Positions 5,791-38,700 are shown, counted from the first letter of the stretch. The stretch: DNA of 41,144 nt from Candidatus Micrarchaeota archaeon (GCA_016207165.1 JACQQD010000002.1:1-41144); one strand, 5' to 3'. Made by a program: numbers and translations. The notes: generated from the sequence alone by a model not told the origin.

Positions 5791-6426
5791 TTACTTCTTT
5801 GGTTTCCAAAGCTCCCATTCTTGCTGGTGGAAACGCCGGTTTTTCAGCAAGGTATCCAGCACCATGGGAATCCAACTATCTGAGGGGAGTTCCTCGATGC
5901 GTTTGCCTTCGCCTCGAGGCAAATCCCTCAAAACCTGGCCGGGCACGCACCGCATCTTCGGAACGACCACCACGTGAAAATCATTTGGATCCAAGGAACC
6001 CAAACGACCGAAGTCATTGTGAGGCATGCCACCCATGTAAATACGCTCTTTCCTGAAACGATTCGCCAAGGCTATCGGGTGATCGGGACTAAGGTCCGAA
6101 CGCGGTTGTTGTGTAAAGCCCTCGCAAAGCGCCTTTTCCAGACGCTCCAGCGCCGCCTGGTTCGATTCCTCGAGGGAGCCATAACGTTGCAAATCCGGAT
6201 AAAGGGTCTCCATCAACCGCGTTAATGCGCCAGGCCCGGAATCATGCCATATTTCCCGCGCCTTCTTTTCAAGCCGGACGATTTCACCGAGTAACCGCCT
6301 CTTACGCATGGCCAACGAAGGCGACATGCGCTCCAGCAAAAGCAAGCGGTGCCCCCGAGGTGCAGGAATTCCGACTTGGGCCGGCTCGTATACGGCGTGG
6401 ACAAAGTAATGAGAAGCGCGCGCCAT
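5791..6426 (-). CDS. Hypothetical cytoplasmic protein
   Basis: Long ORF. ATG 6426 (MARASHY...) lies about 24 bp downstream of a minus-strand TTAAAT at 6450-6455. Confidence 0.55.
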   Translation of the reverse strand: MARASHYFVHAVYEPAQVGIPAPRGHRLLLLERMSPSLAMRKRRLLGEIVRLEKKAREIWHDSGPGALTRLMETLYPDLQRYGSLEESNQAALERLEKALCEGFTQQPRSDLSPDHPIALANRFRKERIYMGGMPHNDFGRLGSLDPNDFHVVVVPKMRCVPGQVLRDLPRGEGKRIEELPSDSWIPMVLDTLLKNRRFHQQEWELWKPKK

Positions 6427-12682: not shown

Positions 12683-12830
12683 CCATGTTTTGAGTTGCGC
12701 GTAAAACGAGCCCCCTCGGTGCGGACCCACGAATTCCAAAGGAATGGGTCCGAAATCTCGGGACCCATTTTTTGGCTTGCTATACGTTCCGGATTGCTGC
12801 ATTTTTAAGTTCGGGACCCAGAAGGCTTTC

Positions 12831-21756: not shown

Positions 21757-24700
21757 GCGGACGGCACTCCAATCATTTCAATAAACTTGTCCCTATCGCT
21801 TTTCACGCCGCCGGGGGTTGCATACGACCATTGAGGCAATAAGGAAGTTGGAAGCGATATGGTGCGGGAGTCAAAGGCCAGCCAATTCTGGGTTCGCGGG
21901 ACTTTCAACGCCATTTCGTAGACTTGGCCGGGTTCCAGGGCCACGTCGAAGCCCCCGAAGACCACGTTGCAGGCGCCGAGGCGGTTGTCATCCAAGTCGT
22001 CAAACACGGCGGTGCGCAACACCATTTTTTCGGTGTAACCGTTGGGATATAGTTCCGAGACCGTGGAACCGGGCTGCGCGTTGATGTGTTCCACGTGAGT
22101 GGATACCAATTCTTCAAAGGCGTTCAGGGCTTGCTGGGCTTGGAAGCAATACAATGCATTTCCCGCGGCGTCCTTGAAGGTGACGGGTTCCTCGATTTTT
22201 TCCAGTTGCTCGGCCAAGACGTCTTTTTTGGACCAATACGTATCGCCTTGCGGCAAGTCTTGAACCTTCAGGGTAAGGGTTTGCCGCGTGTCTTTGCCGT
22301 CGATGGCCACTTTGCACGACGCGTTTTGCGCGGAGGCGTCGACGAGCTTGATGGAGTTGGCGGGCATGGACTCCGAAAACAGGGAGCCGCAGGAAAGAGT
22401 GACTGTCCGCGGATAGTTGTTGACCAGCGTGATTTGTTTCTTGGCGGCGTTCTTGTCGGAGCGGTAAAACGCGAGGTTTTCGGGGGCAACGTACGCCAAG
22501 TCTTCCCGCACGACGTGGCGGACGGGCACGGAAAGCGGCGTGTCGCTGCTTAACTCGCCGGATTCCACGGTGAAGGTTCCCCGGACTTGTTTAACGTCAA
22601 GCAACCCGCCGGAATAGCGGTTTTTGGCTTCGACTTTTACGTCGGCGTACCACTTGTTTTGCGCGTCTTTTTTCACTTGGGCGCTGACAATTCCGGGAGC
22701 GGCCTCCACTGAAACCGTGGGCGCGGTTTCGGTTTGGATGGGCAGTTCCAGGCGGTAGTGCTGGAAGGGGACCAGTTCCGACAAGGCGTTGGCGAGGGTG
22801 GGTTCGTCAGGCACCAAGGATTTTTTGACGGTGTACAAGTCGTAGTTGGTGATGGCTTGGGACAAAATGGTGTAGGAGCTGGACCCGCAGGCGTTGGTTT
22901 TCCAGTAGCTTTCCGCTTTGTTGGTGGAGGCGGGAATCAGGAGGCTGATTTTGTCCTCGCTTTGACCCAGTGTGGGCCCGATGAAGGCCGTGTTGGACTC
23001 CAATTGTTTTTCGACGGTGAACAGCACGCTGGTATTCCACGTTTCGTCGTTTCGCACGTACTGGACGACTTCCTGCGTCTCGTTTTCAACGAGAATGGCG
23101 GGTGCGTTGTCCGGCTTGAGGTACAGCGACGGGTACAAGTGGGAGGTGTAGGCCGGAGTCCCGCTGCGTTTGGGGCGGTTGTACGAGTCCACTAGCTTGG
23201 GGTCGGCGGCGTACGGCGCGGAATCGGTTCCGGAAAGAACGGTTGCCGGAACCACGCCGTGGTACAAGTTGACTTGCGGCGAACTGATGGTTCCCACGTA
23301 ATATGTGTAGGCAAGGTTGCCTTTGCCGTCAAAAGCCGTGCGCGCGTCGGAACTGGGCAGGGAAAGAATCTTGGAGAACACGCCGTTTCGAAGAGCGTAC
23401 AAGGCCGTGTTTCCGGTTTTCCGGGCAAACAGGCTTCCGTCAGGCCCGACCAACATGCTTAGTATCGTGTCGTACGTGGACCCCGAAGTGGGGGGGACGC
23501 CGAAGTAGCCCACCCGCGAAAGTTTTCCGCCCAAATCCGATGACGTCACGTCCTTGGGCACGCCGTCGGAGGCGTACAAGTCCGGGCCGGCGCTGTCGCA
23601 CGTGCTGGCCGAGGAGACGTAAGTGCCTTTTGAAAGGCAGAAGTAGTACTTGCCGTTGCCGGAGCCGACGAACCGCAGGTTTTGCATGGATGACGAGGAT
23701 TCCTTGAGCTTGGAGGCGACGACGAAGTCGTCAATGCCGTCCGGCGTGACGTTCATGGCGCGCAACTCGAAGGTTATCCAGGTTTTTTCCGTGGTGGCCA
23801 GCCCTTCCAGTGGACAGTCGGAAGTGGTGGAGGAACGCGTGTAGTACGACACGCCGTTGATGGTCGTCGTGGTGCAGTAGCTGATGAAGTTGCTGTCGTA
23901 TTGTGAGTAGGACTTGCTTCGGAGTTTGCGACTTTCATAAAAGATGTAGATGCCGGAATCCGGTGCCAGCGCGGCACCCATGAACGACGTGCCGCCGCCC
24001 GCACCCTGGGCGCTGTAGACCTTGGGAGACCCCGACGAGGTCGTGGTGATGACGCCGATTTGCGTGTCCTCGGGTTGGGGCAACCTTTGAGCGCCTAAAT
24101 AGGTCCACGTGCGTCCCTTGTTTTTGGATACGGCCACCGCCGTGACGTCGTAATTGTAATAGCCCGGCCTGGACATGATTTGAACATTGGTGTACTTGGC
24201 GTCCCGGCTGAAGCAAGATTTGTAGTCCTGCGCGTCGGTGCTCCACTTCTTGCTCCCGTCGGATTCCGTGGTGTAAGGAATGGAGCCCGCAGGGCAAATG
24301 ACTGAATTCCCGGAGCCGTACTCATCGCAAAAGGGACACACCCAAACGCCAAACGAGTCTTGTCCAGGAAAGGGGCAATTGCCACCGCTACGATATCCGC
24401 AGGTGGTGACGTGTCGGGAACAGCGGCCCTTGATGTACACGGGTGCGGATGCGGAGGTAAAGCATTCGCCGTCTCTGGTGTCGCACGAGTCTACTTCGTC
24501 ATCGTCGGACAGGTAACAGAACTGGACAGTGGGGCCTGGCAAGGGGGACGTGTCCACCGTGCATTTCGTGATGGCGTCGTAATTGCTTCCGGCTGAGTAA
24601 CCAGGGCGATCTGGGTAATCCACGTGGTAGGCTTCCAATTTCAAAGGCGTATCCTCGTATCCGAGGAATTGCTTGCCTACGGTCTGCGAAGTGCCTTGCA

Positions 24701-25460
24701 ACCGGATGGAGTGCTTGAATACCAGGTACAAGTAGCCGTCTTTGCCGCGAAGCAGGGCCAACACTTGCGTGAGTCCAACGGCCCGGTTTCCGTTGGGGAT
24801 GTTGGAGGCCAACTCCTCCAATGGAAGGGGGTAGTGCGAGGCGGAAAAGCTTTCCGCGTCGGAAGCGGCGGCCGACAAGCCGCCCAACCAAGCCACCATG
24901 AAAACAAGGATCAACGCGAGTGCACGTCGTAACGCCAGCCGTGCAATGCATGAACCCAAGTCCAGCGGTGGGCAAGTGCGTTGGTGGAGGTTGTCTTGCA
25001 GTGGACGGTTGCGCGAATTCGTTTCAGTTGAACCGGATTCAGAAGCGCGTTCGCGGGGCGGTTCTTTGGGCTTGCGGTTTTTCAAGTACAAGTACGCGGC
25101 GCCGCCCACGACGACCAACGCCATCATGAACAGCGCCAAGAGCCCAAAGTCAACGGAGGGCGCTTCGAGATTTGCGTTGGCTTGGCTGGAGGACGCGTCG
25201 GGCGGGAAGTCTTTTTCGAATTGGGCGTTCAAGTCCACGTACCCCTCCGGCAACTCCGGCGGGACCACGGAGGGTTGCACTTCTTCTTCCAGGGGCGGAA
25301 GGACGAATTCGTCGAAAAGCAACGAGTCGGGGCTTGAGGCGGCCATCCAAGGAATCAGAAAGGATGACAAAAGCAAGGCGGTGGAGAGGGCCTTCGTCAA
25401 ATTCATGGGCGTTAAAGCGTACGGCGGCGTTTTCTTTTTGGTTTCGGTAAGGGTCGTCAT
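21753..25460 (-). CDS. Large exported beta-propeller-like protein with a Cys-rich insert
   Basis: 1235-aa ORF (alternative start ATG 25406, MNLTKALS). Asp-box-like VAVSKNKGRTW; repeated beta-strand/turn motifs; three N-terminal hydrophobic segments. Confidence 0.8.
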   Translation of the reverse strand: MTTLTETKKKTPPYALTPMNLTKALSTALLLSSFLIPWMAASSPDSLLFDEFVLPPLEEEVQPSVVPPELPEGYVDLNAQFEKDFPPDASSSQANANLEAPSVDFGLLALFMMALVVVGGAAYLYLKNRKPKEPPRERASESGSTETNSRNRPLQDNLHQRTCPPLDLGSCIARLALRRALALILVFMVAWLGGLSAAASDAESFSASHYPLPLEELASNIPNGNRAVGLTQVLALLRGKDGYLYLVFKHSIRLQGTSQTVGKQFLGYEDTPLKLEAYHVDYPDRPGYSAGSNYDAITKCTVDTSPLPGPTVQFCYLSDDDEVDSCDTRDGECFTSASAPVYIKGRCSRHVTTCGYRSGGNCPFPGQDSFGVWVCPFCDEYGSGNSVICPAGSIPYTTESDGSKKWSTDAQDYKSCFSRDAKYTNVQIMSRPGYYNYDVTAVAVSKNKGRTWTYLGAQRLPQPEDTQIGVITTTSSGSPKVYSAQGAGGGTSFMGAALAPDSGIYIFYESRKLRSKSYSQYDSNFISYCTTTTINGVSYYTRSSTTSDCPLEGLATTEKTWITFELRAMNVTPDGIDDFVVASKLKESSSSMQNLRFVGSGNGKYYFCLSKGTYVSSASTCDSAGPDLYASDGVPKDVTSSDLGGKLSRVGYFGVPPTSGSTYDTILSMLVGPDGSLFARKTGNTALYALRNGVFSKILSLPSSDARTAFDGKGNLAYTYYVGTISSPQVNLYHGVVPATVLSGTDSAPYAADPKLVDSYNRPKRSGTPAYTSHLYPSLYLKPDNAPAILVENETQEVVQYVRNDETWNTSVLFTVEKQLESNTAFIGPTLGQSEDKISLLIPASTNKAESYWKTNACGSSSYTILSQAITNYDLYTVKKSLVPDEPTLANALSELVPFQHYRLELPIQTETAPTVSVEAAPGIVSAQVKKDAQNKWYADVKVEAKNRYSGGLLDVKQVRGTFTVESGELSSDTPLSVPVRHVVREDLAYVAPENLAFYRSDKNAAKKQITLVNNYPRTVTLSCGSLFSESMPANSIKLVDASAQNASCKVAIDGKDTRQTLTLKVQDLPQGDTYWSKKDVLAEQLEKIEEPVTFKDAAGNALYCFQAQQALNAFEELVSTHVEHINAQPGSTVSELYPNGYTEKMVLRTAVFDDLDDNRLGACNVVFGGFDVALEPGQVYEMALKVPRTQNWLAFDSRTISLPTSLLPQWSYATPGGVKSDRDKFIEMIGVPSA

Positions 25461-25463
25461 GCG

Positions 25464-27023
25464 TCAATCACTTGAATCGGTTTCAGGGGTTTGGCAGATG
25501 AAAGGCGACGAAGCCAAAAGCGGGTTTTCCTTCAAGCAGGAAAGGCCCGCGCAGCAGGTGCCGCCGGAAAACACGCCGCACTGCCTGCCTTCAACGCGGC
25601 ACGCCGTATCCTCGACAGGCTCTTCGCCGACGTTGACCAACTCAATGGGCGGTTCGGGAGTCGGTAAAACCAGTTCGCCGTCGAAATAGGAAATGGCGGA
25701 ATCCGCGTCAACCAGCGTGACGCCGGCAAGCAGGTCGGAGAGTTCTTCTGGACTTGGGCTGGGCGACGGGGAGGGACTGGGTGAAGGGCTGGTGGGCGCG
25801 CACACCGTGGAAAACCCGTCCAATTGACAGGACAATGCTTGGCAGCACGAAATGCTTCCAGGGAGAATGCCGCATCCTTGGGCTTGCGGCACGCAGGAGA
25901 GTTCTCCGGAAGGGGAAGAATCCGTTTGCGATGAAGGAGGAGCTTGACAGCCCAAGCGGATGCCAAACGCGTCCAGCGCGCACCCGGCGCCTTTGGGCCG
26001 CACCCAGACACCAAAATCCTCGCGCACGGGCGTTTGCGACGAGCCGACGGCCGCCATGGCGGCATCTGCAGAGGAAGCGTCAATTCCGGCGCCCGTTTTC
26101 AGCCGGACTACTACGTCAAAAGCGGAACCAGACTTGAATTTCGTCGCATCCCAAAAAAGCCGTGACGCGCCGGGAACGCCTTCAAGCGCTTGAATGGTGG
26201 CAGGCCGGGGGAACACGGAACCGAATCCTTCAACTCCGGCTGGCAACAGGACGGCGAGGCCGCCGGAGTAATCCGTTGGCGCGGCAAATGAAAGCAGGGC
26301 GAACCGGCTGCCGTCGGGGCGCTGCAGGACAAAGAACGTGGTGCGGGAGTCCAAGGACCGTTCTAAAACAAGGGTGGATGAGGATCGCAAGTCCGCCGGA
26401 GACGGAATTTCTTCTTTGGAGGCCAAAGCGATTTGCTCGGCGTCCGCTCCCGCATCTTTTCCTGGAAGCACTTTCAAGTTGCCGGTGGGCAAGTCGGAAA
26501 ACGAGTAGGCGAAGCGGTCGTCGGAGACTTTGGACACGGCCACGGGTTCAACGGAAGCCGAGGCGTCCCCAGTCACCGAGAAAAACGAGTACGTGCCGGG
26601 CGGCAGCAGGATGGAAATCGAGTAGGCCGGCGGTGACGCGCCGGAATCAAACGACCACACCGAAGCGGACGCATCCAAAAGCGAGAACGAGAGGCCCGGC
26701 GCTCCCAAAAGCGTGCCCGAACCCCCGACTGGCACAAAAAACGCGTCCGGGTTAAAGTCCGCGCAGTCGCAACGCGTCTCTTGCGGAACGCTTAACGCCG
26801 TGAACAAATTGCCGGGCCGAAACGATCCGGAAGCGTCAGAACACTGCGAGTCCACGACCGCCGCCGCCCGGCATTGTTTTAATTCCAAGTCAGACAAGCC
26901 GGTGGCGGACTGCTGGAAGTTAGACTGGAGAACCAAAACGGCGACCACGACCACCAGCAACGCCCCGCCTAAGAGAAGAACGTATTCAAACGTTCCTTGT
27001 CCCCGTCGCGTGGATGTGGCCAC
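25464..27023 (-). CDS. Class III signal peptide (archaeal pilin-type) protein with a Cys hairpin and two knottin-like modules
   Basis: RRG|QGTFEYVLLLGGALLVVVVAVLVL is a prepilin-peptidase (EppA-type) site with Q at +1 and E at +5. GTG 27023 is the likely start. C-x6-C-x7/8-CC-x4-C-xn-C occurs at 25800-25895 and 25494-25601. Confidence 0.85.
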   Translation of the reverse strand: MATSTRRGQGTFEYVLLLGGALLVVVVAVLVLQSNFQQSATGLSDLELKQCRAAAVVDSQCSDASGSFRPGNLFTALSVPQETRCDCADFNPDAFFVPVGGSGTLLGAPGLSFSLLDASASVWSFDSGASPPAYSISILLPPGTYSFFSVTGDASASVEPVAVSKVSDDRFAYSFSDLPTGNLKVLPGKDAGADAEQIALASKEEIPSPADLRSSSTLVLERSLDSRTTFFVLQRPDGSRFALLSFAAPTDYSGGLAVLLPAGVEGFGSVFPRPATIQALEGVPGASRLFWDATKFKSGSAFDVVVRLKTGAGIDASSADAAMAAVGSSQTPVREDFGVWVRPKGAGCALDAFGIRLGCQAPPSSQTDSSPSGELSCVPQAQGCGILPGSISCCQALSCQLDGFSTVCAPTSPSPSPSPSPSPSPEELSDLLAGVTLVDADSAISYFDGELVLPTPEPPIELVNVGEEPVEDTACRVEGRQCGVFSGGTCCAGLSCLKENPLLASSPFICQTPETDSSD

Positions 27024-27069: not shown

Positions 27070-27164
27070 TATAGCAAACCGCGAAAGTTCCGGGAAACTT
27101 TCGCGCCGTTTGCTAGAAAGCAATCCCGGACTATTTCGTCGGGTTACTTTCCGGGATTGCCATA
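27070..27164. repeat. 95-bp twin-hairpin element, copy 1 (MITE-like or structured RNA)
   Basis: 81/95 identical to 33849-33943 by ungapped manual alignment; two long stems. Confidence 0.9.
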
Positions 27165-27204
27165 GGTTTGGCCAGCTCCGGAAAACGGTGCAAGCGGATA
27201 ACCG

Positions 27205-27918
27205 TCAACGCCGCCGCGTCTTTGCCGAGGAACCGGAAATCTTTTTCTGGAAGGGCATCCAGCGCACCAAGTTGCCGGACTTCCAGTACGGAGTGAGGAT
27301 TCGGCGGGCGACGAGTTCATCCATCACGGATTTCAGCTTGGTTTGCGGCACGCGGATGCGGTGCTTGGCGTAAAGCTCTTCCTTGACCATGTCCAGCGAC
27401 TTTTTCTCGCCGGAATCCGCATCGTACAAGCCGGCGACCAGCTGGCACATGTCTTCCGTGAAGTTCCACGGGAACACGAACCAAGTCCAGGGTTGTTTGG
27501 AGGCGTAGTAATCCGGTACAAAGGATGAGTTCTCCAAAACGAACAACGCCGCGGTCTTGAGTTTCCTTGGTTTTTGTTTCAAGAGGTGGTCGCGGGCCAA
27601 GGCAAAGCTCTGTCCGGTGTCCGCCAAATCGTCAACCAATAGAACGTTTTTCTTGGCGACGTCCGCCTTGAGCGGCGAATGGAGTTTGGCGGCCGGATCT
27701 TTTTGCGCGGTGACGCCCCAGTGGCTGACTTGAAAAGAGTACAAATCCGAGACCATCAAAAAATCCGCGAGGCTGCGGGCCGGCACGTAGCCTCCGCGCG
27801 CGATGGCGACGATGACGTCGGGCTTGAAGTGGTCTTCCCGGATTTTCCCCGAAAGGACGCGGGAGTACTCGTACATGTCCTCCCAGGACAGAACCTCGCA
27901 GCGGAAAGGCTTGATCAT
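27205..27918 (-). CDS. Type I phosphoribosyltransferase (archaeal purine PRTase-like)
   Basis: PDVIVAIARGG, PRPP loop VLLVDDLADTGQS, WFVFPW. Confidence 0.92.
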   Translation of the reverse strand: MIKPFRCEVLSWEDMYEYSRVLSGKIREDHFKPDVIVAIARGGYVPARSLADFLMVSDLYSFQVSHWGVTAQKDPAAKLHSPLKADVAKKNVLLVDDLADTGQSFALARDHLLKQKPRKLKTAALFVLENSSFVPDYYASKQPWTWFVFPWNFTEDMCQLVAGLYDADSGEKKSLDMVKEELYAKHRIRVPQTKLKSVMDELVARRILTPYWKSGNLVRWMPFQKKISGSSAKTRRR

Positions 27919-27957
27919 AAAAATGGAATGAATGGCGGCAATAAGAGGCTTTCCGAT

Positions 27958-28380
27958 TCAAATGTCCAACAGCACGCGGACAACCCAGTTCCCGTTTTTC
28001 CGTTCCGCCTTGGTCTCGTGGTGCGTCACGGCTTTCACGTCCAACACGCCTGCCTTGGCGGACATGGGCGCGCCCCGCGCCACGCCTTCCAACACAAAGC
28101 CGTCCTTGGTTTCCGCAAAACGCGTGACGGCAAACGAGCGGAAAAAAAGGCCGTGGGCGTCGCGCTCGGCCACCAAGTCACTCAAAACGAAGGCGGCCAG
28201 TTCGGATTCGGAAAGCGCGGTTTCGCGGATGGTGACTTTCTTGGACGTGCCGACCAGCGTCAAGTCGGCGATGGTTTCAAAGAGGGCCTTGGCCGCGTTC
28301 TCCAACGCTTCAGGAAAGGTTTGGCCGTACGCTTCGTAGAGCACGTCGGCGGTGTGGTCGAAAAACTTATAGGGCTTCAT
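27958..28380 (-). CDS. Archease (RtcB tRNA-ligase activator)
   Basis: YKFFDHTADV...DVKAVTHH...VLLDI. ATG 28380 is preferred (minus-strand TTTATA at 28406-28411); alternative start 28392. Confidence 0.95.
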   Translation of the reverse strand: MKPYKFFDHTADVLYEAYGQTFPEALENAAKALFETIADLTLVGTSKKVTIRETALSESELAAFVLSDLVAERDAHGLFFRSFAVTRFAETKDGFVLEGVARGAPMSAKAGVLDVKAVTHHETKAERKNGNWVVRVLLDI

Positions 28381-28444
28381 GAACCGTTTCATGGTACCGC
28401 ATGCCTATAAAGCCGTGCGGGAACACGCCAGGTGATTCCAGATT

Positions 28445-28777
28445 ATGTTGCCGAACATGAACCCCAAACAGCTTCAAGCCATGATGAAGCAGTTGGGCAT
28501 CAAGAACGAGGAAATCGAAGCGGAAAGAGTCATCGTCGAGAAATCCGACGGCTCCAAGCTCGTGGTGGAACCCGCGCAAGTCATGCTCATCGACATGAAA
28601 GGCCAGAAAAGCTTGCAGGTATCCGGAGAGTTCCAGGAAGAAAAAGGCTCCCAAACACAAACCGACGCCGACTTGGTCATGCAGGAAACCGGGTGCACGA
28701 AAGAGGAAGCCGAAAACGCCTTGAAGGAATCCGGCGGCGACTTGGCGGAAGCCATCTTAAAACTCAAAAAAGAGTAA
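28445..28777 (+). CDS. nac: Nascent polypeptide-associated complex protein (archaeal NAC)
   Basis: MNPKQLQAMMKQLGI...SLQVSG...D.DLVMQETG...ALKESGGDLAEAILKL; AGGTGA upstream. Confidence 0.96.
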   Translation: MLPNMNPKQLQAMMKQLGIKNEEIEAERVIVEKSDGSKLVVEPAQVMLIDMKGQKSLQVSGEFQEEKGSQTQTDADLVMQETGCTKEEAENALKESGGDLAEAILKLKKE

Positions 28778-28796
28778 GCCTACTGGCTGTTGGTCA

Positions 28797-28820
28797 AGAA
28801 AAGAAAAAAAACAAAAAAAG
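28797..28820 (-). terminator. Oligo-T tract after the beta-propeller gene
   Basis: A-rich run on + immediately past the minus-strand stop at 28821. Confidence 0.5.
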
Positions 28821-31082
28821 TCAGCGGACGGCGATGACGTCGCCTTCAATGTAAGGACCAAAGGGGCCAACGTAGCCGGGGTCGTACGGTAGTTTCACCG
28901 ACTTGAGTTCCGTCAAGTCCGACAACGCGTTGGCCTTGATGTACGAGTCAGACACGGTGTACAAAACGTCGCCGATGTACGCCGAACGCTTGACGTCGGT
29001 TCCGCCGCCGTAATAGTAATCGCCCATTTTCTTGAGTTGCTCGGCGTCCACGTGCGACACGTTGCCTTTGAGGTTGAACACGTTGCAGGCGTTCTGCACC
29101 GCGCAAGAGGGATCCACGCCAAAGGCGTAGGCGCCTTCAAAAACGACGTCGCCGTACACATGCACCAAGTCGTCCGTCTTCCTCTCGGGCGGTACCTGGG
29201 CCACGCGGACGGGAATGACTAACAGGTTTTTCTCTTTGTCAAACAAAAAGGCCTTGTGGTCGGACAGCGCGTAGGAATCCGATCCCGCGTCGCCAATGCC
29301 AAACGTACCCAGTTCCACGGGGTTGGAGACGTCCGACACGTCAAACAAAGACAGTTTGAGGCCCAGGGGAAACGCCAAGTCGCTGTCTTTCAGGGGAACG
29401 GCGTCCTTGCCTAAGCCAATGAGGTGCGTGTCGTCGTACGGGTGCAAGTAATTGGAGTAACCCGGAATCTTGAGCTTGCCCAACAATTCGGGGTGCGTCG
29501 GGTCGTCAAGGCCTATCACAAACAAGGGATCCAATTGCCGGAACGTGACGAGGTACGCGCGCGAATCCATGAAGCGCGCCGAGTAAATCGTTTCCCCAGG
29601 CGCAAGGTCCTCGAGTTTCCCGACCACGGTCAAGCCGGAGTCCAGCACGTACACGTGGTTCTTGGACGGCTGGCTTTGGCCCCAGACTTGGCCCGTGGTG
29701 GTCGCCACGCGAAGAAAGCCTTCAAACTCATCCAATGAAAATTGGTTCAACAAGTGGCCGGGCACTTGGCCTTCGCCTTGGTACTGGATTTGTTGACCCA
29801 AGGCGAAGCGGTGGATGGACGTGACTTCCGTCGGAGTGTATTTTCCGCGAAGCTCGTTTTCCTTTTCGTACACCGTCTCAAAGGCTTCCTGGCGCGCGGC
29901 GTCATCCAAACCATTCAAGTAGTCCTGAACCACGGCGATTTTGAGGTTGTCTTTGCGCCATTCCGAGACGTCGGAGGCGTCCGCGGCCGAAATCTTGTCT
30001 TTGACTTCTTGCGGCGCGGAGTCCACCGCCCATGCATACGATTCCCAAAGCGGGAGGTACTGGGGGTAGCGGGTGTACGCGATGTAGGCGTTGTCCTTGG
30101 AAACGTAGACGGTCTGGGCGCCGCCCATCAGAACGATTTCCTTGTCCAGGGTCTCGGGATTGGCGACGTCAAACCCCAGCATGGTGGTGAACTGGTAGGA
30201 GTCAAACGGGTAGTCGATGTAGCGGATGTCCGACGGAAGAATTTCCGCGACTTCGCCGTCCACGGCGTAAAGAGGCCTTGGCACCTGAACGTTGGCGTAA
30301 TCCGAAAACACGGCGTACACGCGGCCCCCAATCATGCGGGACGCCACGTAAGACCCCTTGACGTCGACGCGTTGGACGAGTTTGGGACTGGACCGGTCGG
30401 AGATGTCGTACACGTCAATGAAACTGGTTTGCGAGTAGTACGGATAATAGTCTGGGGCAATCATTTTGGAGGCCACGCCGGCGGCCGGAGCAATCTGGGT
30501 GACCACGGAGTCCACCACCGCGTCCTGGATTTTTTGTTCCAACGGCTTGACGTACGGCTCCCAGTCAAAGGTCTTGGAGCCCAAGGCCACCAACCGGTCG
30601 CCGTTTATGAAAAAGCCGGAGTACTGCATGTTGGAGTCGTTCAGAACGGAAAGTACTTTCGCGTCGGAGGCCGGATACGCGCGGGCGATGACGAGGTCGT
30701 CCCCTGACAAAGTATAGATGTAGGTGCCATCGGTTTTGAATACGTCGGCTTCGTCCACTCCCTGGACTTGCACGTTGGTGGTGGAGTAATCGGGCGCGGC
30801 TTCACCGGATTTCGCCGCCGCCAGGGGTGCACCGAAGGCAAAGTCTTCGGCGATGCCGTATCCGCGGTAGCCGCCTTGGGGTTGTTGGGCGGAGGCCAAA
30901 AACGAGGCGACGTTTTCCCAGGATTCAAAGGACTTCAAGTCGGAGCCAAGGGCAACGACGCTGGGATTGACAGTCGGCGTAACGGAGGGCATGGGCCCGG
31001 GGCCTGGAAGCGAAATGCCGACGATGACGAAGGCCGCGATGACGACGACCGCGAAACCCAACCAGAATGAATTGCCTTTCAT
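28821..31082 (-). CDS. Secreted or membrane-anchored Beta_propel-family protein
   Basis: YSTTNVQVQGVDEADVFKTDG, LLNQFSLDE, GETIYSARF, VTFRQLDPLFVI, LKIPGYSNYLHP, LKLSLFDVSD, DHKAFLF. Confidence 0.93.
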   Translation of the reverse strand: MKGNSFWLGFAVVVIAAFVIVGISLPGPGPMPSVTPTVNPSVVALGSDLKSFESWENVASFLASAQQPQGGYRGYGIAEDFAFGAPLAAAKSGEAAPDYSTTNVQVQGVDEADVFKTDGTYIYTLSGDDLVIARAYPASDAKVLSVLNDSNMQYSGFFINGDRLVALGSKTFDWEPYVKPLEQKIQDAVVDSVVTQIAPAAGVASKMIAPDYYPYYSQTSFIDVYDISDRSSPKLVQRVDVKGSYVASRMIGGRVYAVFSDYANVQVPRPLYAVDGEVAEILPSDIRYIDYPFDSYQFTTMLGFDVANPETLDKEIVLMGGAQTVYVSKDNAYIAYTRYPQYLPLWESYAWAVDSAPQEVKDKISAADASDVSEWRKDNLKIAVVQDYLNGLDDAARQEAFETVYEKENELRGKYTPTEVTSIHRFALGQQIQYQGEGQVPGHLLNQFSLDEFEGFLRVATTTGQVWGQSQPSKNHVYVLDSGLTVVGKLEDLAPGETIYSARFMDSRAYLVTFRQLDPLFVIGLDDPTHPELLGKLKIPGYSNYLHPYDDTHLIGLGKDAVPLKDSDLAFPLGLKLSLFDVSDVSNPVELGTFGIGDAGSDSYALSDHKAFLFDKEKNLLVIPVRVAQVPPERKTDDLVHVYGDVVFEGAYAFGVDPSCAVQNACNVFNLKGNVSHVDAEQLKKMGDYYYGGGTDVKRSAYIGDVLYTVSDSYIKANALSDLTELKSVKLPYDPGYVGPFGPYIEGDVIAVR

Positions 31083-31180
31083 GCAAGAATCACCTGGAAG
31101 GATAACGAATCCGGGTTAATAAGAACGAACGGATTTGTTCAGGCAAAAACCTGAAACCCGGAAAACAAAAAATCGGAGTG

Positions 31181-31243
31181 AAAGGAAAAAAAAAGTAAAA
31201 AAGAAAAAGAAAAAAAGAAAAAAAAGAAGAAAAATCCAAAAAG
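31181..31243 (-). terminator. Long oligo-T tract (about 60 nt) after the 31244 gene
   Basis: Almost pure A/G run on +, which is U-rich on the transcribed strand directly after the stop. Confidence 0.55.
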
Positions 31244-33817
31244 TTAGCGGTTGCCGCCGCCGAACAGGTTGGACAGGAACGACAGGATGCCGGAGGCGCC
31301 TTGTTCCTTGGATTCCGCGCGGGCTCCCAAACTCACCTGTTGCTGCTCCAAGTCCAAAATCTGGGCGTCCAAAATCGCGGCGGCATTGGCGTCATCCACC
31401 TGCTCACGCAGTTGCTTGAGGCGCTCGATGGTACCAGCCAGTCGCTCGCTTTGCTCTTTAATGAGCTCCGCGTCCTTGCGTTCCTGCTCGGCCTGCAAGC
31501 CAATGATTTGCGTCAACGCGTACAAGACGTCTTTCTGGTTGACTTTCTGCAGGTTCTCATCGGTTTCCGCCACGTTGTCCGACTCGAAGTCCAACAGGGG
31601 TTGCAGGGATGGGGGAACAAGGTCCCGAATTTCTTGGAGTTTGGAGGCTCGGCGTTCAAAGTCCCTAAGCTTGTCTGGATCGGGGCTTCGGGCAAACTCG
31701 CGGCATCCGCGGGCCACGGCCTTTTCGACGGCGGGGCGGATTTGGTCGGGTTGCGTGAGTTCCTCGCACCGTGCCAATTGCTTTCTTCCAAACTCGCAGC
31801 CGCGCTCGGTTTCTTTCAGGCATTGTTCCTTTCCGCGGCCCGTGTCCTTGCAGTAGCGCTCCAAGTCGCGGAGCATCCGCTTGGACTCCAGCTCGCAGAT
31901 GCGGCCAAAGTCAATGCGCTCGCGTTCCTTTTGCATGTACTTCTGCTGTTCTTGGCGGCAGAACGCAACAAAAGAGTCCTTGCTACAGGGGTTGAATTGG
32001 GGGCCTTGCTGTTGCATGCGGGAACACTCGCGTTCGAATCGGGGTTGTTGTTGTTGCCATTCCTGTTCGCACCGCTCGGAAGCGCTGATCTGTCCGGTGA
32101 TGAAAGCCGTGAACGGCGAGGAAGCAACTTGGGCTTGCGTCGTGGGAGAAGGCCACGCCGTTGGAGACGGATAAGGCTCACCACTTGGAGACGGATAAGG
32201 CCCAGCCGTGGGAGAAGGCCACGCCGTAGGCGAAGGAGCGGTTGGGTACTGGCACTGGTAATACGTGCAACCGCTTTGCTGGACGGTGCTCACCGTGCCG
32301 CCACCGCTTAGACACGACTGCTTGTACGCCTCATCCAAAGAGGGACACGTCGGCCCGGAAGTTGGAGAAGGCCACGCCGTTGGAGACGGATAAGACCCTG
32401 CCGTGGGAGAAGGCCACGCCGTTGGAGACGGATAAGGCGTTGTGCCGGACGCACCCTGGCATTGCACGTAAATGCATCCGTCGTGGGAGTTCTCGGACCA
32501 CGTGCCGCCGCCACCGGTACAGGTATTCTTGGCTTGTTGGCGTTCGGCATCGGAAGGACAATACTTTCCGGTCTGGGGGTAGGGGGAACTGGTGGGCGGA
32601 GTGGTTTGGCCGTATTTGCAGACGATGTTAAAGACGCATCCGTTGCGGTCCGTCTGTTTTTCGGCGAATCCGCCGGTGGACTGGCAGTTGTCATACCAGG
32701 CTTGCGGGAGTTGGGGGCCGGAGGGGCACTGGCGTTGAATGGGTTGGGGCTGGCCTTTGTTGTAGTCTCCGTATGGTGGCTGGCCGGGTTGGCCTTCAGG
32801 GGGTTGGCCGGGGTAGGGTTGTTCGTATCCTGAACTGCGCTCCAGGCACTGGGAAATGAACTTGTCCTTGCTGCAGAATTCCGGCAACCTGATTTGGCCG
32901 CCCTCGCACTGCTGGCTGAAGTGGCCTTGCTCGAATTCCCAGCGGACTTCGCAGTCGTCGTCCAAGTCCTGTTCGCGCTCCGAAAAACCGCGGCTGAATT
33001 CCTTTTCCATGCGGCTCTTACAGGCGGAAAGGATTTGTGCCTTGTCCGGCGGACAACTGAATGAAAACGCTTCTTCCTCGCCTGGCGGGCCGAATCGGGG
33101 TCCGCCGAATTCGGGGTTGCCAATCATTTCGCATTGTTTTTTGCCTTCTTCGCAGTACTCCAGGCCGTTCTTGATTTCGGAGCAGAATTCCTTATTGAGG
33201 TCCAAACCACTTTGCTGGAATTCGGAGAGCACCAAATCGACGAGTTCGGGTTGGTTGTCGCACTTGGCTTTCAGGTTTTCTTCGCCGTATTTCTGCATCA
33301 TTTTTTCGCCGATGAGTTTAAACACGCCGAATCCGACAAATGCGGGGTCATCGCTTAAACCTTCAAACCCGCCAAAAGCGCGGTAGTCTTGGGGGCCAAA
33401 CGACGGGCCGCGGCCTTGGGGTCCGTAGCCGGGTTGGCCGAAATCACTGGGCCCGTAGTCGGGGGATTGATCCAAGTCGCGGTCGTTGGGTCCGCGGGGG
33501 CCAACGGAGTCGCGTTCGCTGTAATCCGGTCCGCCGTTTCGCTCGATGTATCCGCCTTGTCCGCCGCCATAACCGGGGCCCAGGGGAAGGGGTCCTTGGG
33601 GTCCGTCTTTGACTTCGGTGTCCGGCCTAAAATCGTTTCCAAAGGGGTCCAAGCGGCCTTGAATGTCAGCGATTCGCTCGCCGGCAAAACCTTTTTTCTG
33701 TTGCTGATCGGCTTGCACCGCGGCGGCCACTTGCGCGTCGGTGGGGCCTTCGGCCGCTACAACCAAACCGCTGCCAACCAGCAGCGCGAAAACGATGAAC
33801 ACCGACAAGCCCTTCAT
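31244..33817 (-). CDS. Secreted Cys/Gln/Pro-rich hypothetical protein with YPSPTAWPSPT repeats and a coiled-coil C-terminus
   Basis: Signal peptide MKGLSVFIVFALLVGSGLVVAA from ATG 33817; three C...C..GG...GC....C modules; amphipathic tail ILSFLSNLFGG. Confidence 0.85.
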   Translation of the reverse strand: MKGLSVFIVFALLVGSGLVVAAEGPTDAQVAAAVQADQQQKKGFAGERIADIQGRLDPFGNDFRPDTEVKDGPQGPLPLGPGYGGGQGGYIERNGGPDYSERDSVGPRGPNDRDLDQSPDYGPSDFGQPGYGPQGRGPSFGPQDYRAFGGFEGLSDDPAFVGFGVFKLIGEKMMQKYGEENLKAKCDNQPELVDLVLSEFQQSGLDLNKEFCSEIKNGLEYCEEGKKQCEMIGNPEFGGPRFGPPGEEEAFSFSCPPDKAQILSACKSRMEKEFSRGFSEREQDLDDDCEVRWEFEQGHFSQQCEGGQIRLPEFCSKDKFISQCLERSSGYEQPYPGQPPEGQPGQPPYGDYNKGQPQPIQRQCPSGPQLPQAWYDNCQSTGGFAEKQTDRNGCVFNIVCKYGQTTPPTSSPYPQTGKYCPSDAERQQAKNTCTGGGGTWSENSHDGCIYVQCQGASGTTPYPSPTAWPSPTAGSYPSPTAWPSPTSGPTCPSLDEAYKQSCLSGGGTVSTVQQSGCTYYQCQYPTAPSPTAWPSPTAGPYPSPSGEPYPSPTAWPSPTTQAQVASSPFTAFITGQISASERCEQEWQQQQPRFERECSRMQQQGPQFNPCSKDSFVAFCRQEQQKYMQKERERIDFGRICELESKRMLRDLERYCKDTGRGKEQCLKETERGCEFGRKQLARCEELTQPDQIRPAVEKAVARGCREFARSPDPDKLRDFERRASKLQEIRDLVPPSLQPLLDFESDNVAETDENLQKVNQKDVLYALTQIIGLQAEQERKDAELIKEQSERLAGTIERLKQLREQVDDANAAAILDAQILDLEQQQVSLGARAESKEQGASGILSFLSNLFGGGNR
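32145..32436. repeat. Intragenic 31-bp repeats encoding YPSPTAWPSP
   Basis: GGAGAAGGCCACGCCGTTGGAGACGGATAAG is exact at 32145-32175, 32364-32394 and 32406-32436, with partial copies around 32185-32227. Confidence 0.9.
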
Positions 33818-33848
33818 GCACAAACGCCCCCGCGAACTTTTCAAAGGT

Positions 33849-33943
33849 TATAGCAAACCTCGAAAGTCTTCCGAGACTTTCGAGCCGTTTGCTAGATAGC
33901 AATCCCCGACTCTTTTGTCGGGTTACTTTCGGGGATTGCTATA
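33849..33943. repeat. 95-bp twin-hairpin element, copy 2
   Basis: Perfect terminal inverted repeat TATAGCAA/TTGCTATA; two internal stems. Confidence 0.9.
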
Positions 33944-33969
33944 AACCAATAGAGGGCACGCGGGAGGGC

Positions 33970-33976
33970 TATTTAA
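33970..33976 (-). promoter_or_regulatory. Candidate TATA box TTAAATA upstream of element copy 2 and the 33817 gene
   Basis: Minus-strand TTAAATA lies 27 bp from the element edge. Confidence 0.45.
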
Positions 33977-33990
33977 CGGTTTGGGAGGGG

Positions 33991-34293
33991 CTAGTGGTTG
34001 TGAGCGGAATGCGTGGGCGTCAGCCAGAAGCCGGCGACCAGGAAAATCAAGCCCAAAATCGCGTCAATGAGCATGCTTTGGATCAAAGCGGTGGTGGACG
34101 CAGCCAACAATTGGCGGGTTTGTTCCAAGTCCGTGCCAGCCAAGCCGGCTTGTTCCAGTTGCTCCAGTTGCTGCAAGGAAGGCTCGATGGTGGCTTGCTG
34201 GATGAGGTACTGGTTGGCGTGCCACAAGCCCAAGAGAAGCGACCCGACGCCCAACAAAATCAGCGTCCAGGACAACAGGGGGTTGGAGGCCAT
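33991..34293 (-). CDS. Small membrane protein with two TM helices
   Basis: Two hydrophobic segments; starts 2 bp after the pfdB stop. Confidence 0.75.
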   Translation of the reverse strand: MASNPLLSWTLILLGVGSLLLGLWHANQYLIQQATIEPSLQQLEQLEQAGLAGTDLEQTRQLLAASTTALIQSMLIDAILGLIFLVAGFWLTPTHSAHNH

Positions 34294-34295
34294 GA

Positions 34296-34655
34296 TCAGT
34301 TGGCTCCCCGCGGCGTGCCGCGTTGGCTTTGGGCGTAGGATTCAAGTTTTTTTCGGACTTCGGTGAAGCGCTCCATGATTTTTTTTTCTTGTTTCTCGAA
34401 CAGGACGTTCTTGGAGGCCACGTCTTGTTTTTCTTTGGCCAATTCGGACTCAAGTTGGTCCTTGCCGCGGGCGACAAGCACTGAACCGACGAAGCGGTAA
34501 AACGGGCCAGGCGAGGACTTGACTTCCTCCAACGCTTGATCCAACTCCTTTTCCTGCATGGAGAGTTGTTGGCGCTGGATGAGCACCATCTGCAGTTGCT
34601 GCTGGAGTTGGTTGTAATCCTGGGCCATGTTCTGCACGTCTTCCTGGGATGCCAT
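34296..34655 (-). CDS. pfdB: Prefoldin beta subunit
   Basis: YNQLQQQLQMV..QRQQL...ALEEV...FYRFVGSVLV; follows the Brix gene. Confidence 0.93.
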   Translation of the reverse strand: MASQEDVQNMAQDYNQLQQQLQMVLIQRQQLSMQEKELDQALEEVKSSPGPFYRFVGSVLVARGKDQLESELAKEKQDVASKNVLFEKQEKKIMERFTEVRKKLESYAQSQRGTPRGAN

Positions 34656-35793: not shown

Positions 35794-38700
35794 ATGCTCA
35801 GCAAGGCCCCACGGGCATTACCGGTTGCCCTCTTTTTGATCTTGTTTTCCGTTCAGGCCGCGGCGCTTTCGATTTCCAAAGAATCCTTTTCCGCGCAAGC
35901 CACCGCCACCCAGCCGGACTTGAAGCTGTTCGTCGCCAAAAACTTTTTCGACCAAAACGAGAGCATCGAGTTGTTCGGAACCCTTTTCAACGTGACGGCC
36001 ACGTCGGGCGTGGCCAGCACGTTCACGCCGTTGGCCAACCAAAACATCACGATCAACTTCACCAACAGTTCCGGCAACTTGACCAACCAATACAATTTCA
36101 CCACCGACGTGAACGGGTCGTTTTACTCCAACAGCTCGTTTTACCCCTCGGCCACGCTCGTGTACGCCCCCAACGTCTCGACAGTATACACGCTGAGAGC
36201 CGGATACCTGGAAAGCGGCGCGGTGTATTTCTCTTCCGTCTCCATCCAAGTCGGCAACGCCACCGTCCAGCACTTGCTGCTTCAGCCCAACAAAGCCGAA
36301 TACGCGCCCGGGGAAGCCATGAACGTGACGGCCACGGCACTGCGGGGAACCGGAACCCAGGCCGTCAAAGTCGCCAACGTGTTCGTCAACGGAACCGTGC
36401 GGTACTTGAACCAAACCATTCTCCAGAACTTTTCCTGCACCACGGGATCCGACGGCTCTTGCACGGCGAACATGACGGCGCCCGGCAGCGCGGCCCTTGA
36501 CACCTTCGTGCTGGAGGCCAACCACTTCCTGGGGTACTCGTTGTTTTACGTCACGTCGTTTTCCGTGATCGTTGAAGTCAGAGACCAGGAAGGAAAACAG
36601 ATCAAGGACGTGTTCGCGCAAACCGAAAGCGGCGTGGTGCGTGTCGGCATCCGGGTGAACAACACGGTGCCTTCGTCCGGCAACTACAACGCGACGGTGC
36701 AAATCACGCACTCCAACGGGACGCTGGTCCAAGCGCTCTCCAGCCTCACGTTCAACGCCAACAACACGTACACCAACCAAAGCACGTTCTCGGCATCCAC
36801 GTTGGGCGAGGGAACCTACGTCGTCAACGTCAGCGCCACGGACGCCGCCAACAACGTGCGCCGCGTCCAGCGGGCCTGGCTGCAAGTCAGGGCGTGGACG
36901 TTGGACTTCCAGAAATCCGTGGCGAACTCGGGATTCGAGTACGGCTACACCACGCTTCCCAACCGGACGCTGCGCTTTGAAGTACTGCCCCAATTCCGCG
37001 CCAACGGAACCATTATCACCGGCATCGCGTCCACGTTCCGCTACGACCTGAAAACCCCGCTGGGCGTCACCGTCCAGAACGCGTCGAGCGCCACCTACAA
37101 CGCGTCCTGCAACGTGTCGGGATGCTACGAGTTCAACCTCACGGCTCCGTCGGCCATCGGAACGTACTTGCTGAGCGTGACGATGACGTCGGGCGGCGTT
37201 TCCCGCACGCAAACAAAGACGTTGTTCGTCAACGGCTTGACTGGCACGGCCTCCACCGTGGACTCCGCCGGCCTCTCCAAAGCCGTGTTCGGGATCAACG
37301 AGTTTCTCAACATCAACTTCACCCTGAAAAACGCGACGGGCGTCGTCAACGTGACGAACGCCTCCGTCATTTCCGTGACGTACGAAAACGGCGTGGACTC
37401 CAACTACAGCCAGCAAACCAACCTCTCGCTGATGAATACCTCGGACGCCGTATTGCAGTGGGCCTGGAACGCGTCGTCCAACCGGCTGGTGCTGGACGTA
37501 CCCAAGCAAGGAGGGCTGTACTCGGTGGAAGCCTACATCAACAACCAAAGCGCGAAAACCAGCGTCCAGTTTTTCGCCAACCCGTATGACACGTGTTTCT
37601 CCGCGAAAGCCTCCGCCTCCGAATCGGCCTCCGACTACTTCTGGCAATTCCGGCCCTCGGACACAGTATACATGCAGATTACGGTCACGGAAGCCGAAAA
37701 CGCGGTGGGCGGAAACACGTCCAGCATCACCGCGGCCTTGAGCAATAACTACGGCCGAGGAAACTCGTGCTCGTTTAACAGCAACCAGAAACAAAGCGTG
37801 GTCAACGCCTCCATCAACATCACCCAGGCCCTCAACCTGGAAAAGGGAGCCGCGGAGTCTTTGAACCTCACGGCCTCCGGCTGCCAGAGCCTGTCCACCC
37901 AAGGCCACTACCTATGCACCCTGAAACCCAACGACACCGCATGGGACACGGGAAAGTACGCCGTGGAATTTTCGATTCGTTCCCAGGACGGCAACGTGTC
38001 CGACGTAGGCAACGCCTTTTTTGAAGCCCGCGAGTTCTACGTCTACGGCTACACCACCAACTGGATCAACAAGCCGGCCAGCAACATCACGCTGAACATC
38101 CAAGTCTACGAAGCCGGCTCCGGCTGGTGGACGTCTTCCACGGGACTGAGCGGAACCGCCTCCTTGCAGCGCGTGGAATACCACGGCAACATCGGGGAAT
38201 GGTTTTCCTCTTCCACGCCGTTTAACTACAACACCAGCGCACTCAACAGCAGCACGATTGCCAACGGAGCGGGGACGTTGACGCTCAACGCCAACGGCAC
38301 GCCGTCGGGCGCCTGGCCCGCGGGGTACTACACCGCTCGAATCCAAGTCACCACCGACGACGGACGCACCGACTACGGCGACGCCTGGTTTGAAGTGAGG
38401 AACTGGGACGCGTGGGCCCAGCAAGTCGACGTGGACACCGCCATCCAATACCGGTACTCCAACGCCCCCAACCAAACCGTCCAACTGTATCTGCGCATCA
38501 CCAACGCCGGCGAATACTCGGACAACGGAGGCAATTCGCTGGGGGGCAACGTGACGGTCCGCGTCAAAAGCATTGACCAGTGGACGTCCAACGGACGCAT
38601 CGAGTTGCCGCGATCCCAGTACACGGCCAACCCCATCACCGTCAACCAATCCAGCCCTTACCCAGGAAGCCTCACGTACACCACCCACATCCTCAACATC

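Follow-up and report, generated by a model that had tools for sequence, protein, structure and literature searches.

A twin-hairpin repeat beside two Cys-rich protein genes of a Micrarchaeota archaeon very probably belongs to an IS630-derived MITE family

Two copies of a 95-nt twin-hairpin element lie in a 41,144-nt stretch of Candidatus Micrarchaeota DNA (GCA_016207165.1, JACQQD010000002.1:1-41144; hereafter the window, meaning the whole stretch that was analysed), each facing the start of a gene for a Cys-rich protein with a signal-type N-terminus. What is such a repeat doing in front of two genes of this kind? An earlier note, made from the sequence alone, had named two possibilities, a new archaeal MITE family (MITEs being miniature inverted-repeat transposable elements) or a conserved cis-regulatory RNA for surface genes. 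We analyzed the element in the 1.269-Mb, 12-contig assembly that holds the window (G000; 90% complete, 56% G+C; the window is its contig C2), in which a codon-based caller predicted 1,354 genes (89.8% coding) and in which small-subunit rRNA was not found. The results indicate that the 95-nt repeats are very probably an IS630-derived MITE family, orphan in this genus and moved in trans by a TA-inserting DDE transposase of the IS630/Tc1-mariner type.

The two copies align without gaps over 95 nt and differ at 14 positions (12, 20-24, 27, 35, 49, 59, 64, 68, 83 and 92), as a script count confirmed for the earlier note, and the three compensatory changes that it had described are present as claimed (12:35, G-C to T-A; 20:27, T-A to C-G; 59:83, G-C to C-G). 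RNA folding of either strand of both copies gave two adjacent hairpins at -42.7 to -48.7 kcal/mol, with z-scores of -5.1 to -9.4 and none of 200 shuffles as stable. In hairpin 2 of copy 1, the terminal pairs are imperfect (AAGCAA...TTGCCA). The note had also offered an alternative pairing for GTCGGG, which lies in the hairpin 2 loop. This reading was rejected: a partner, CCCGAC, is available only in the stem subtype with that sequence, and the other subtypes offer at most GAC...GTC or nothing.

G000 has about 32 insertion sites of a single family, and the window copies account for two of them. A DNA search of the assembly returned 37 matches to the element, and an nhmmer profile of 12 full copies gave, after merging, 36 loci, which are spread over 10 contigs and both strands. 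One of these loci, intragenic and with E = 0.82, was set aside as noise; 31 of the other 35 are entirely intergenic, and four overlap predicted gene ends by 21-34 nt. When loci less than 200 nt apart were merged at E<0.01, 32 sites were counted: 20 between co-directional genes, eight between convergent genes and four between divergent genes, classes that hold 56%, 16% and 28% of the intergenic bases, respectively. The orientation of the copies relative to genes is mixed, and the copies face 36 gene ends versus 28 gene starts. By our count, the family supplies 51 of the 103 intergenic hairpins that are perfect and have stems of at least 9 bp; the whole assembly has 233 perfect hairpins with such stems versus 83 in a locally shuffled genome.

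The unit of the family is a 47-nt module in which a 14-bp stem closes an asymmetric loop some 19 nt long (consensus ATAGCAAnCCnnGA-CTATTTyGTCGGGwwACTT-TCnnGGnTTGCTAT). The 95-nt element consists of two modules placed head to head with a GA joint, hairpin 1 being the module reversed; in several subtypes, both window copies included, the loop of hairpin 1 is shortened and partly turned into stem. At its ends the element carries an imperfect terminal inverted repeat of about 27 nt, TAGCAAwCCnnGAAAGTwwCCCGAC, and in the 15 twin copies the 27-nt terminus at one end agrees with that at the other at 13-21 of 27 bases. The outer 14 nt or so of each terminal repeat recur inverted just inside it; each half therefore folds into a hairpin, the loop of which is the inner half of the terminal repeat. 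Besides the twins of 94-95 nt, we found five single modules (49-50 nt), the termini of which are the 14 bp of the hairpin stem, expanded forms of about 150-210 nt with extra mini-hairpins within hairpin 1 or hairpin 2, and truncated remnants. The units, which measure 49, 94-95 and about 150-210 nt between their TA flanks, are short, consist of hairpins only and have no coding capacity. Single, twin and expanded variants have common termini and a variable interior, and the family therefore looks like a mobile element recognised by its termini. All 20 intact units (15 twin and five single) have TA on both sides, beyond which the sequence is unrelated; the flanks show a weak preference, with T before the left TA in 12 of the 20 and A after the right TA in 11.

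The mini-hairpins within expanded copies, 22-25 nt long (GCAA...TTGC or CACAA...TTGTG), occur in arrays and are often joined by TGCATGC, and TGCAAGCCGTTATCGGCTTGCA was seen three times (Table 1). They look like modules accreted within the element.

The termini point to the IS630 clade of insertion sequences (ISs). They agree at 19-21 of 27 positions, including the loop-forming GAAAGTAAnnnGAC, with the termini of three ISs of 1.12-1.18 kb that encode helix-turn-helix (HTH) and DDE_3 domains (L204, L205 and L208); the right terminus of copy 2, read inward (TAGCAATCCCCGAAAGTAACCCGACAA), agrees at 21 of 27 with two IS630-type termini. Among 20,000 random 27-mers from G000, four reached at least 18 of 27, and one of the four was the element itself. 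A 636-bp IS630-type element was found in a genome of the same order, G064, with 33-nt inverted repeats, TA followed by TAGCTGACCAAGAAAGT... at one end and, as reverse complement, TA followed by TAGCTTTCCTTGAAAGT... at the other. Its 178-aa open reading frame (ORF) has no HTH domain and has lost the first part of DDE_3, keeping the C-terminal part; the element is therefore a defective, internally deleted IS with its ends kept, and it resembles a stage of deletion on the way from a full IS to a MITE. Both of its ends carry the 14-base signature TATAGCnnnCCnnGAAAGT, which occurs 20 times, never reversed, in 14 genomes of the order: 17 occurrences are element termini, two are these G064 ends and one is a solo site (G052:C102), which was discarded as it had no IS around it.

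Thirteen loci, most of them in DPANN metagenome-assembled genomes (MAGs), carry relatives of the G064 transposase. One MAG, G068, holds five copies of a single IS, four of 1,183 bp and one of 1,868 bp, which encodes a 354-aa protein with HTH_23, HTH_32, HTH_28, HTH_29 and DDE_3 domains, HTH_Tnp_IS630 being below the cut-off. All five copies have TA on both sides, and their termini are TAGCACTCCAATAAAATAATTGGAC and TAGCATTCCCAGAAAGTAATTTGAC; in two further DPANN MAGs, related elements measure 1.12 and 1.17 kb and end in TAGCAAACCAAGAAAGTAATTCC and TAGCTCTCCACATAAGTAATCCGAC. The IS630-type elements of G025, G038 and G052, from the same order, were set aside as candidates, having only the start, TA followed by TAG, in common with the MITEs and agreeing with the MITE termini at 9-17 of 27 positions. 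IS4/IS5-type genes were likewise rejected as the mobiliser, since none of the six in G009 and the one in G001 has TATAGC-type termini. The six genes in G009, a 1.3-Mb Micrarchaeota MAG, are of the DDE_Tnp_1 type (L085, L087-L090 and G009:C6:9156-9695), and one of them lies about 180 bp from a MITE copy. A further gene, L094 (G051:C3, 1375-2673), encodes a 432-aa protein with an N-terminal DDE_3 domain (residues 43-182), no HTH domain and, as an extension at the C-terminus, about 250 Lys/Glu-rich residues that match nothing in Pfam; it is not surrounded by termini of the TATAGC type and may be an IS630-type transposase that has been domesticated or rearranged.

The family is distributed patchily among relatives. 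A DNA search found the element in five of 41 related genomes, G000 counted. The covariance model R1, whose hit numbers count palindromes on both strands, detected it in 12 of the 68 genomes searched from the order, spread over four of 11 families, with 50 hits in G000, 66 in G001, 26 in G002, 35 in G009, 14 in G064 and 1-5 in each of seven others; it had no hits in 0.73 Mb of distant relatives' contigs. A strict 27-letter pattern, run over 185,579 species genomes, matched at 18 places, every one of them within three groundwater MAG records of Candidatus Micrarchaeota; the pattern had no hits in viral contigs, and BLAST had none in plasmids. Between congeners, element copies are 77-94% identical and coding DNA is 66-75% identical.

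Positions are not kept between species. The 17 element-bearing loci of G001, G002 and G009 represent 14 distinct sites; nine of these could be placed in G000 by synteny, and none of the nine is filled there. At the site of copy 2, both congeners are without the element: in G001, the flanking gene pair is adjacent, with an unrelated spacer of about 130 nt, and in G002, the pair is parted by two extra small ORFs. The first of these small ORFs (L041, G002:C68, between the orthologues of 33991-34293 and 31244-33823) was judged by eye to be SpoVT/AbrB-type antitoxin-like. For copy 1, synteny stops at the element. Taken with the TA boundaries and the IS630-like termini, the many copies, their mixed orientation, their presence in all intergenic classes and the difference in sites between species uphold the earlier note's suggestion of a TA-type archaeal MITE. 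The note's own test of the regulatory reading, many copies in mixed orientation, came out in favor of a MITE; base-exact empty sites were not obtained.

The compensatory changes were evaluated in 36 modules of G000 (32 distinct), taken from 59 module-level hits at E < 1e-3 and nearly full length. Standard pairs occupy 93.7% of the stem cells, versus 76.2 +/- 1.3% in shuffles, none of 500 of which reached that value, and at most 46.4% in slid registers. Nine of the 14 stem pairs are changed on both sides, in 80 cells. Copies from the other genomes gave 94.4% paired cells and again nine doubly changed pairs of 14, in an alignment that was fitted to the model with hits from both strands and is biased toward structure. 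Mismatches in the stems are symmetric (eight G.T versus six A.C among 446 cells), only 17 of the 32 distinct modules have fully Watson-Crick stems, and three single modules are chimeras of two stem types. In the 15 twins, an average of 12.3 of 13 positions agree between a terminus and its own inner arm, compared with 8.7 of 13 between a terminus and the opposite one; the pairing is therefore local, within halves. The stem covariation is real but, given the symmetric mismatches, the share of fully paired modules and the chimeric single modules, it is no evidence for RNA. The local pairing could reflect selection for hairpins, in DNA or in RNA, or gene conversion between closely spaced inverted repeats.

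In IS630/Tc1-mariner elements, the transposase uses its HTH domain to bind the terminal inverted repeat at its inner half. We propose that the family derived from an IS630/Tc1-mariner-type DDE transposase element inserting at TA and that it would be mobilised by such a transposase supplied in trans. The flanking TA would then be a target-site duplication, and the loop, as the inner half of the terminal repeat, would be a candidate site for the HTH domain; GAAAGTAAnCCGAC is the motif that may serve as this site. Stem covariation would reflect selection for, or concerted evolution of, a palindrome at the DNA level and not RNA function. The family looks orphan in the genus because the assemblies are without such a transposase. 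On the MITE reading, the window copies adjoin surface-protein genes by chance, and single copies may affect their neighbours: the terminal TATA of copy 2 sits at the position expected of a TATA box for the downstream gene.

Several observations weigh against this proposal. The IS630-type domain DDE_3 (PF13358) had no hits in G000, G001, G002 and G009, the element-rich genomes (MAGs 71-90% complete), and tblastn of the order's DDE_3 proteins against G000 revealed no remnant (best E-value 0.03); insertion sequences often fail to assemble in MAGs, which bears on the missing transposase. The five genomes with full-length IS relatives (G068-G072) have no hairpin modules, and only G064 has both modules and an IS, the IS copy being defective. 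A TA duplication is not distinguishable from fixed terminal bases. A base-exact empty site was not obtained, interspecies intergenic DNA being too diverged: comparison of a filled G001 site with G000 showed that a gene end is conserved until about 8 nt short of the element, past which no sequence could be aligned, and a search of metagenome contigs with a beta-propeller protein returned only relatives of at most 43% identity and no clean empty site. No two copies in G000 are identical, and nearest neighbours are 79-99% identical, by which very recent activity is not indicated. Finally, a DDE transposase needs no hairpins, and the local pairing and the nine covarying pairs of 14 are unexplained by a plain MITE model. 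These last points leave some room, in our view unlikely to be needed, for a fold-back, with the transposase-site loop displayed at the hairpin tip, required by the life cycle of the element, through a hairpin or single-stranded DNA intermediate with an atypical IS630-clade enzyme, or for hairpins recruited by these reduced DPANN genomes as portable TATA-box or RNA-hairpin modules that rewire neighbouring promoters, including those of the two surface-protein genes of the window. IS630-clade relatives that have no N-terminal HTH domain exist, for example in G051 (432 aa) and G064 (178 aa).

Two observations favor a structured 5' leader dedicated to exported or surface-protein genes, the second suggestion of the earlier note: both window copies lie upstream, at 24-46 nt, of a gene whose Cys-rich product has a signal-type N-terminus, and their twin hairpins are thermodynamically strong. 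The genome-wide counts do not bear this out. A hydrophobic N-terminal segment is encoded by 6 of the 28 start-facing genes (21%), two of which are the window genes, versus 19.6% of all called genes; more gene ends than gene starts face copies, eight sites are purely convergent, both orientations occur, and there is no strand-specific wobble signature. A TTTTATT box lies between copy 1 and the start codon of the 519-aa gene, so copy 1 is probably outside the transcript of that gene, and a comparison with Rfam 15 gave no match in the window at gathering scores. We therefore regard a dedicated leader RNA as extremely improbable. H/ACA and C/D small RNAs were also considered and rejected by eye, the stems being long and perfect with no pocket and no box motifs being present.

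A broader form of the regulatory idea, which adds function to the MITE reading, is that the host has partly co-opted the family as TATA boxes, as RNA hairpins in 5' untranslated regions or at 3' ends, or as protein-binding sites. Copies are more alike between species than coding DNA is, and the stems covary strongly in G000 and its relatives. In addition, TA dinucleotides and TATA-like hexamers peak genome-wide at -24 to -30 from called starts, which suggests mostly leaderless transcripts, and the ends of 5 of the 28 start-facing elements, coinciding with this peak, fall 22-25 nt from the start codon (copy 2 is among them if GTG 33823 is the start). This clustering is explained equally well by a preference for insertion into the TA of TATA boxes and by a terminal TATA that replaces the TATA box. 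Selection for transposability in master copies may account for the conservation, and gene conversion between inverted repeats that lie close together may account for the covariation. Co-option is further opposed by the failure of positions to persist between species (none of nine sites, with the copy 2 site empty in both congeners), by the mixture of orientations and intergenic classes, by the near equality of G.T and A.C mismatches, which gives no sign of one functional RNA strand, by the broken stems of several chimeric single modules, and by the fully Watson-Crick state of only 17 of the 32 distinct modules. On balance we consider it improbable.

Repetitive extragenic palindromes (REPs) and bacterial interspersed mosaic elements (BIMEs), associated with REP-associated tyrosine transposases (RAYTs), whose Y1 (HUH) genes typically have the repeats on both sides, are extragenic hairpins of bacteria that occur singly or as inverted pairs and show compensatory change; REPs carry a conserved 5' GTAG. 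The present family recalls them in its modular hairpin units, which are extragenic imperfect palindromes found singly, as inverted pairs or clustered with other small hairpins, in its pairing within halves and not between termini, and in its covarying stems with a conserved loop. Mobilisation as single-stranded DNA hairpins by an HUH transposase of the Y1, RAYT type would account for these traits. However, Y1_Tnp (PF01797) was not found in any of six genomes (G000, G001, G002, G009, G064 and G030), with a positive control in 6 of 14 reference genomes, and TnpB had no match in G000. Both the termini and the loop motif agree with inverted repeats found in DDE elements of the IS630 family, TA flanks all 20 intact units, and the 5' GTAG is absent. 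A REP-like origin is thus very improbable.

We therefore place the family among the IS630/Tc1-mariner-derived MITEs, a known kind of system, here with an unusual two-hairpin build and as a well-anchored family in a DPANN phylum. MITEEc1_IS630 of E. coli is an IS630-derived MITE (bioRxiv 10.1101/2024.01.18.576219), and plant Stowaway elements are mobilised by mariner-type transposases (PMC6881990). Like such MITEs, the present elements are short and non-coding, with imperfect IS630-matching termini, TA flanks, dispersed intergenic copies, the capacity to fold back and a presumed dependence on a transposase in trans. Unlike them, they have a DPANN (Micrarchaeota) host and two separate hairpins, each terminal repeat being folded on its own outer 14 nt, in place of one long hairpin; they also include 49-nt single-hairpin and expanded forms with common termini, and no cognate transposase was found in the element-rich genomes. 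The Correia elements of Neisseria, about 100-150 bp long, also have inverted termini, TA ends and many intergenic copies, and may affect neighbouring transcription; no transposase is known for them in the host genome. They resemble our family in these traits, and our family differs in its host domain and in having a nameable parent IS clade; the comparison is one of general features and not of sequence.

Among archaea, PMC3718332 describes Sulfolobus MITEs of 320 and 164 bp, SMN1 and SM3A, mobilised by the transposases of ISC1733 and ISC1058, respectively. These too are non-autonomous, have terminal inverted repeats and use IS transposases in trans, and some of their host strains are without a functional cognate transposase, according to the same paper; their IS families and sizes are different. 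That paper assigns ISC1048 to IS607, and a pairing of one Sulfolobus MITE with an IS630-type ISC1048 was not confirmed. A 2026 survey of archaeal ISs mentions Micrarchaeota and IS630 and, in its accessible portions, does not treat MITEs (PMC13343696). We found no description of this MITE family in the literature, as far as the sources could be consulted; the census of archaeal candidate MITEs in bioRxiv 10.1101/2024.01.18.576219 may list it in its supplementary files.

The assignment has consequences for annotation, in which labels such as riboswitch, terminator or small RNA should be avoided for hairpins of this family, and for assembly and binning, since Micrarchaeota MAGs often break at such repeats. 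It ties about half of G000's intergenic hairpins that are long and perfect to an IS630-type clade in DPANN archaea, and it indicates that streamlined genomes of about 1.3 Mb still hold dozens of non-autonomous transposons. Between species in which gene identity has fallen to about 70%, the copies are still about 90% alike. For covariation-based RNA discovery, the family is a warning: the strong compensatory change seen here belongs to a DNA transposon, the terminal repeats of which form the stems.

Both window copies sit between co-directional minus-strand genes (Table 1). The distance from copy 2 to the start of the 859-aa gene is 24-31 nt, depending on whether GTG 33823 or ATG 33817 is the start. 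The earlier note's guess of a DPANN host was borne out by archaeal Pfam domains in the window (class III signal peptide, archease, NAC and prefoldin beta) and by related records, which are Candidatus Micrarchaeota from groundwater. Positions 33300-34500 of the window are present in four groundwater DNA runs of one study; no RNA runs were listed.

Table 1. Coordinates of the repeat copies, their neighbours and other hairpin or transposase features (window positions unless a genome and contig are named)
Feature	Position	Strand	Details
Copy 1, twin-hairpin MITE	27070..27164	+	flanking TA 27070-27071 and 27163-27164 included; nhmmer 93.6 bits
Copy 1, hairpin 1 (left half)	27072..27115	+	terminus TAGCAAACC..., inner motif GAAAGTTCCGGGA, inverted terminus copy ...GTTTGCTA
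Copy 1, hairpin 2 (right half)	27118..27162	+	47-nt module, conserved loop CTATTTCGTCGGGTTACTT; model R1 63.9 bits
Copy 2, twin-hairpin MITE	33849..33943	+	flanking TA 33849-33850 and 33942-33943 included; 94.3 bits
Copy 2, hairpin 1 (left half)	33851..33894	+	
Copy 2, hairpin 2 (right half)	33897..33941	+	perfect 14-bp stem, conserved loop; model R1 69.2 bits
Copy 1 neighbour, start facing element at 46 nt	25464..27023	-	519 aa, GTG start, class III (archaeal pilin-type) signal peptide, 18 Cys
Copy 1 neighbour, end facing element at 40 nt	27205..27918	-	phosphoribosyltransferase
Copy 2 neighbour, start facing element	31244..33823	-	859 aa, hydrophobic N-terminus, 33 Cys, no Pfam match
Copy 2 neighbour, end facing element at 46 nt	33991..34293	-	100-aa ORF
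Mini-hairpin arrays	G000 C1:47022-47126; C7:5949-5999 and 33229-33250; C8:128022-128166; C12:35257-35310		
L092, IS630-type element	G064:C122, 2474-3101		636 bp, 178-aa DDE_3 ORF
TTTTCTTTTCGGGAAAAGAAAA-like palindromes	G000 C6:89996-90021, 92184-92208, 95458-95479; C8:850-871, 6191-6211; C11:34430-34451, 78580-78621		outside the window

Three very large proteins are encoded in the window, of 1,235 aa (21753-25460, minus strand), 859 aa (31244-33823, minus strand) and 1,503 aa (35836-40347, plus strand), with no Pfam match or only a sub-threshold match to MG2; they are likely surface proteins of a DPANN archaeon.

Two further kinds of hairpin fall outside the MITE family. A solitary, perfect 9-bp intergenic hairpin (AATGGGTCC...GGACCCATT) occupies positions 12743-12769 of the window. 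Elsewhere in G000, a second, unrelated family of perfect intergenic hairpins, TTTTCTTTTCGGGAAAAGAAAA-like palindromes, occurs at at least seven places, where runs of T suggest archaeal terminator-like sites or another small repeat.

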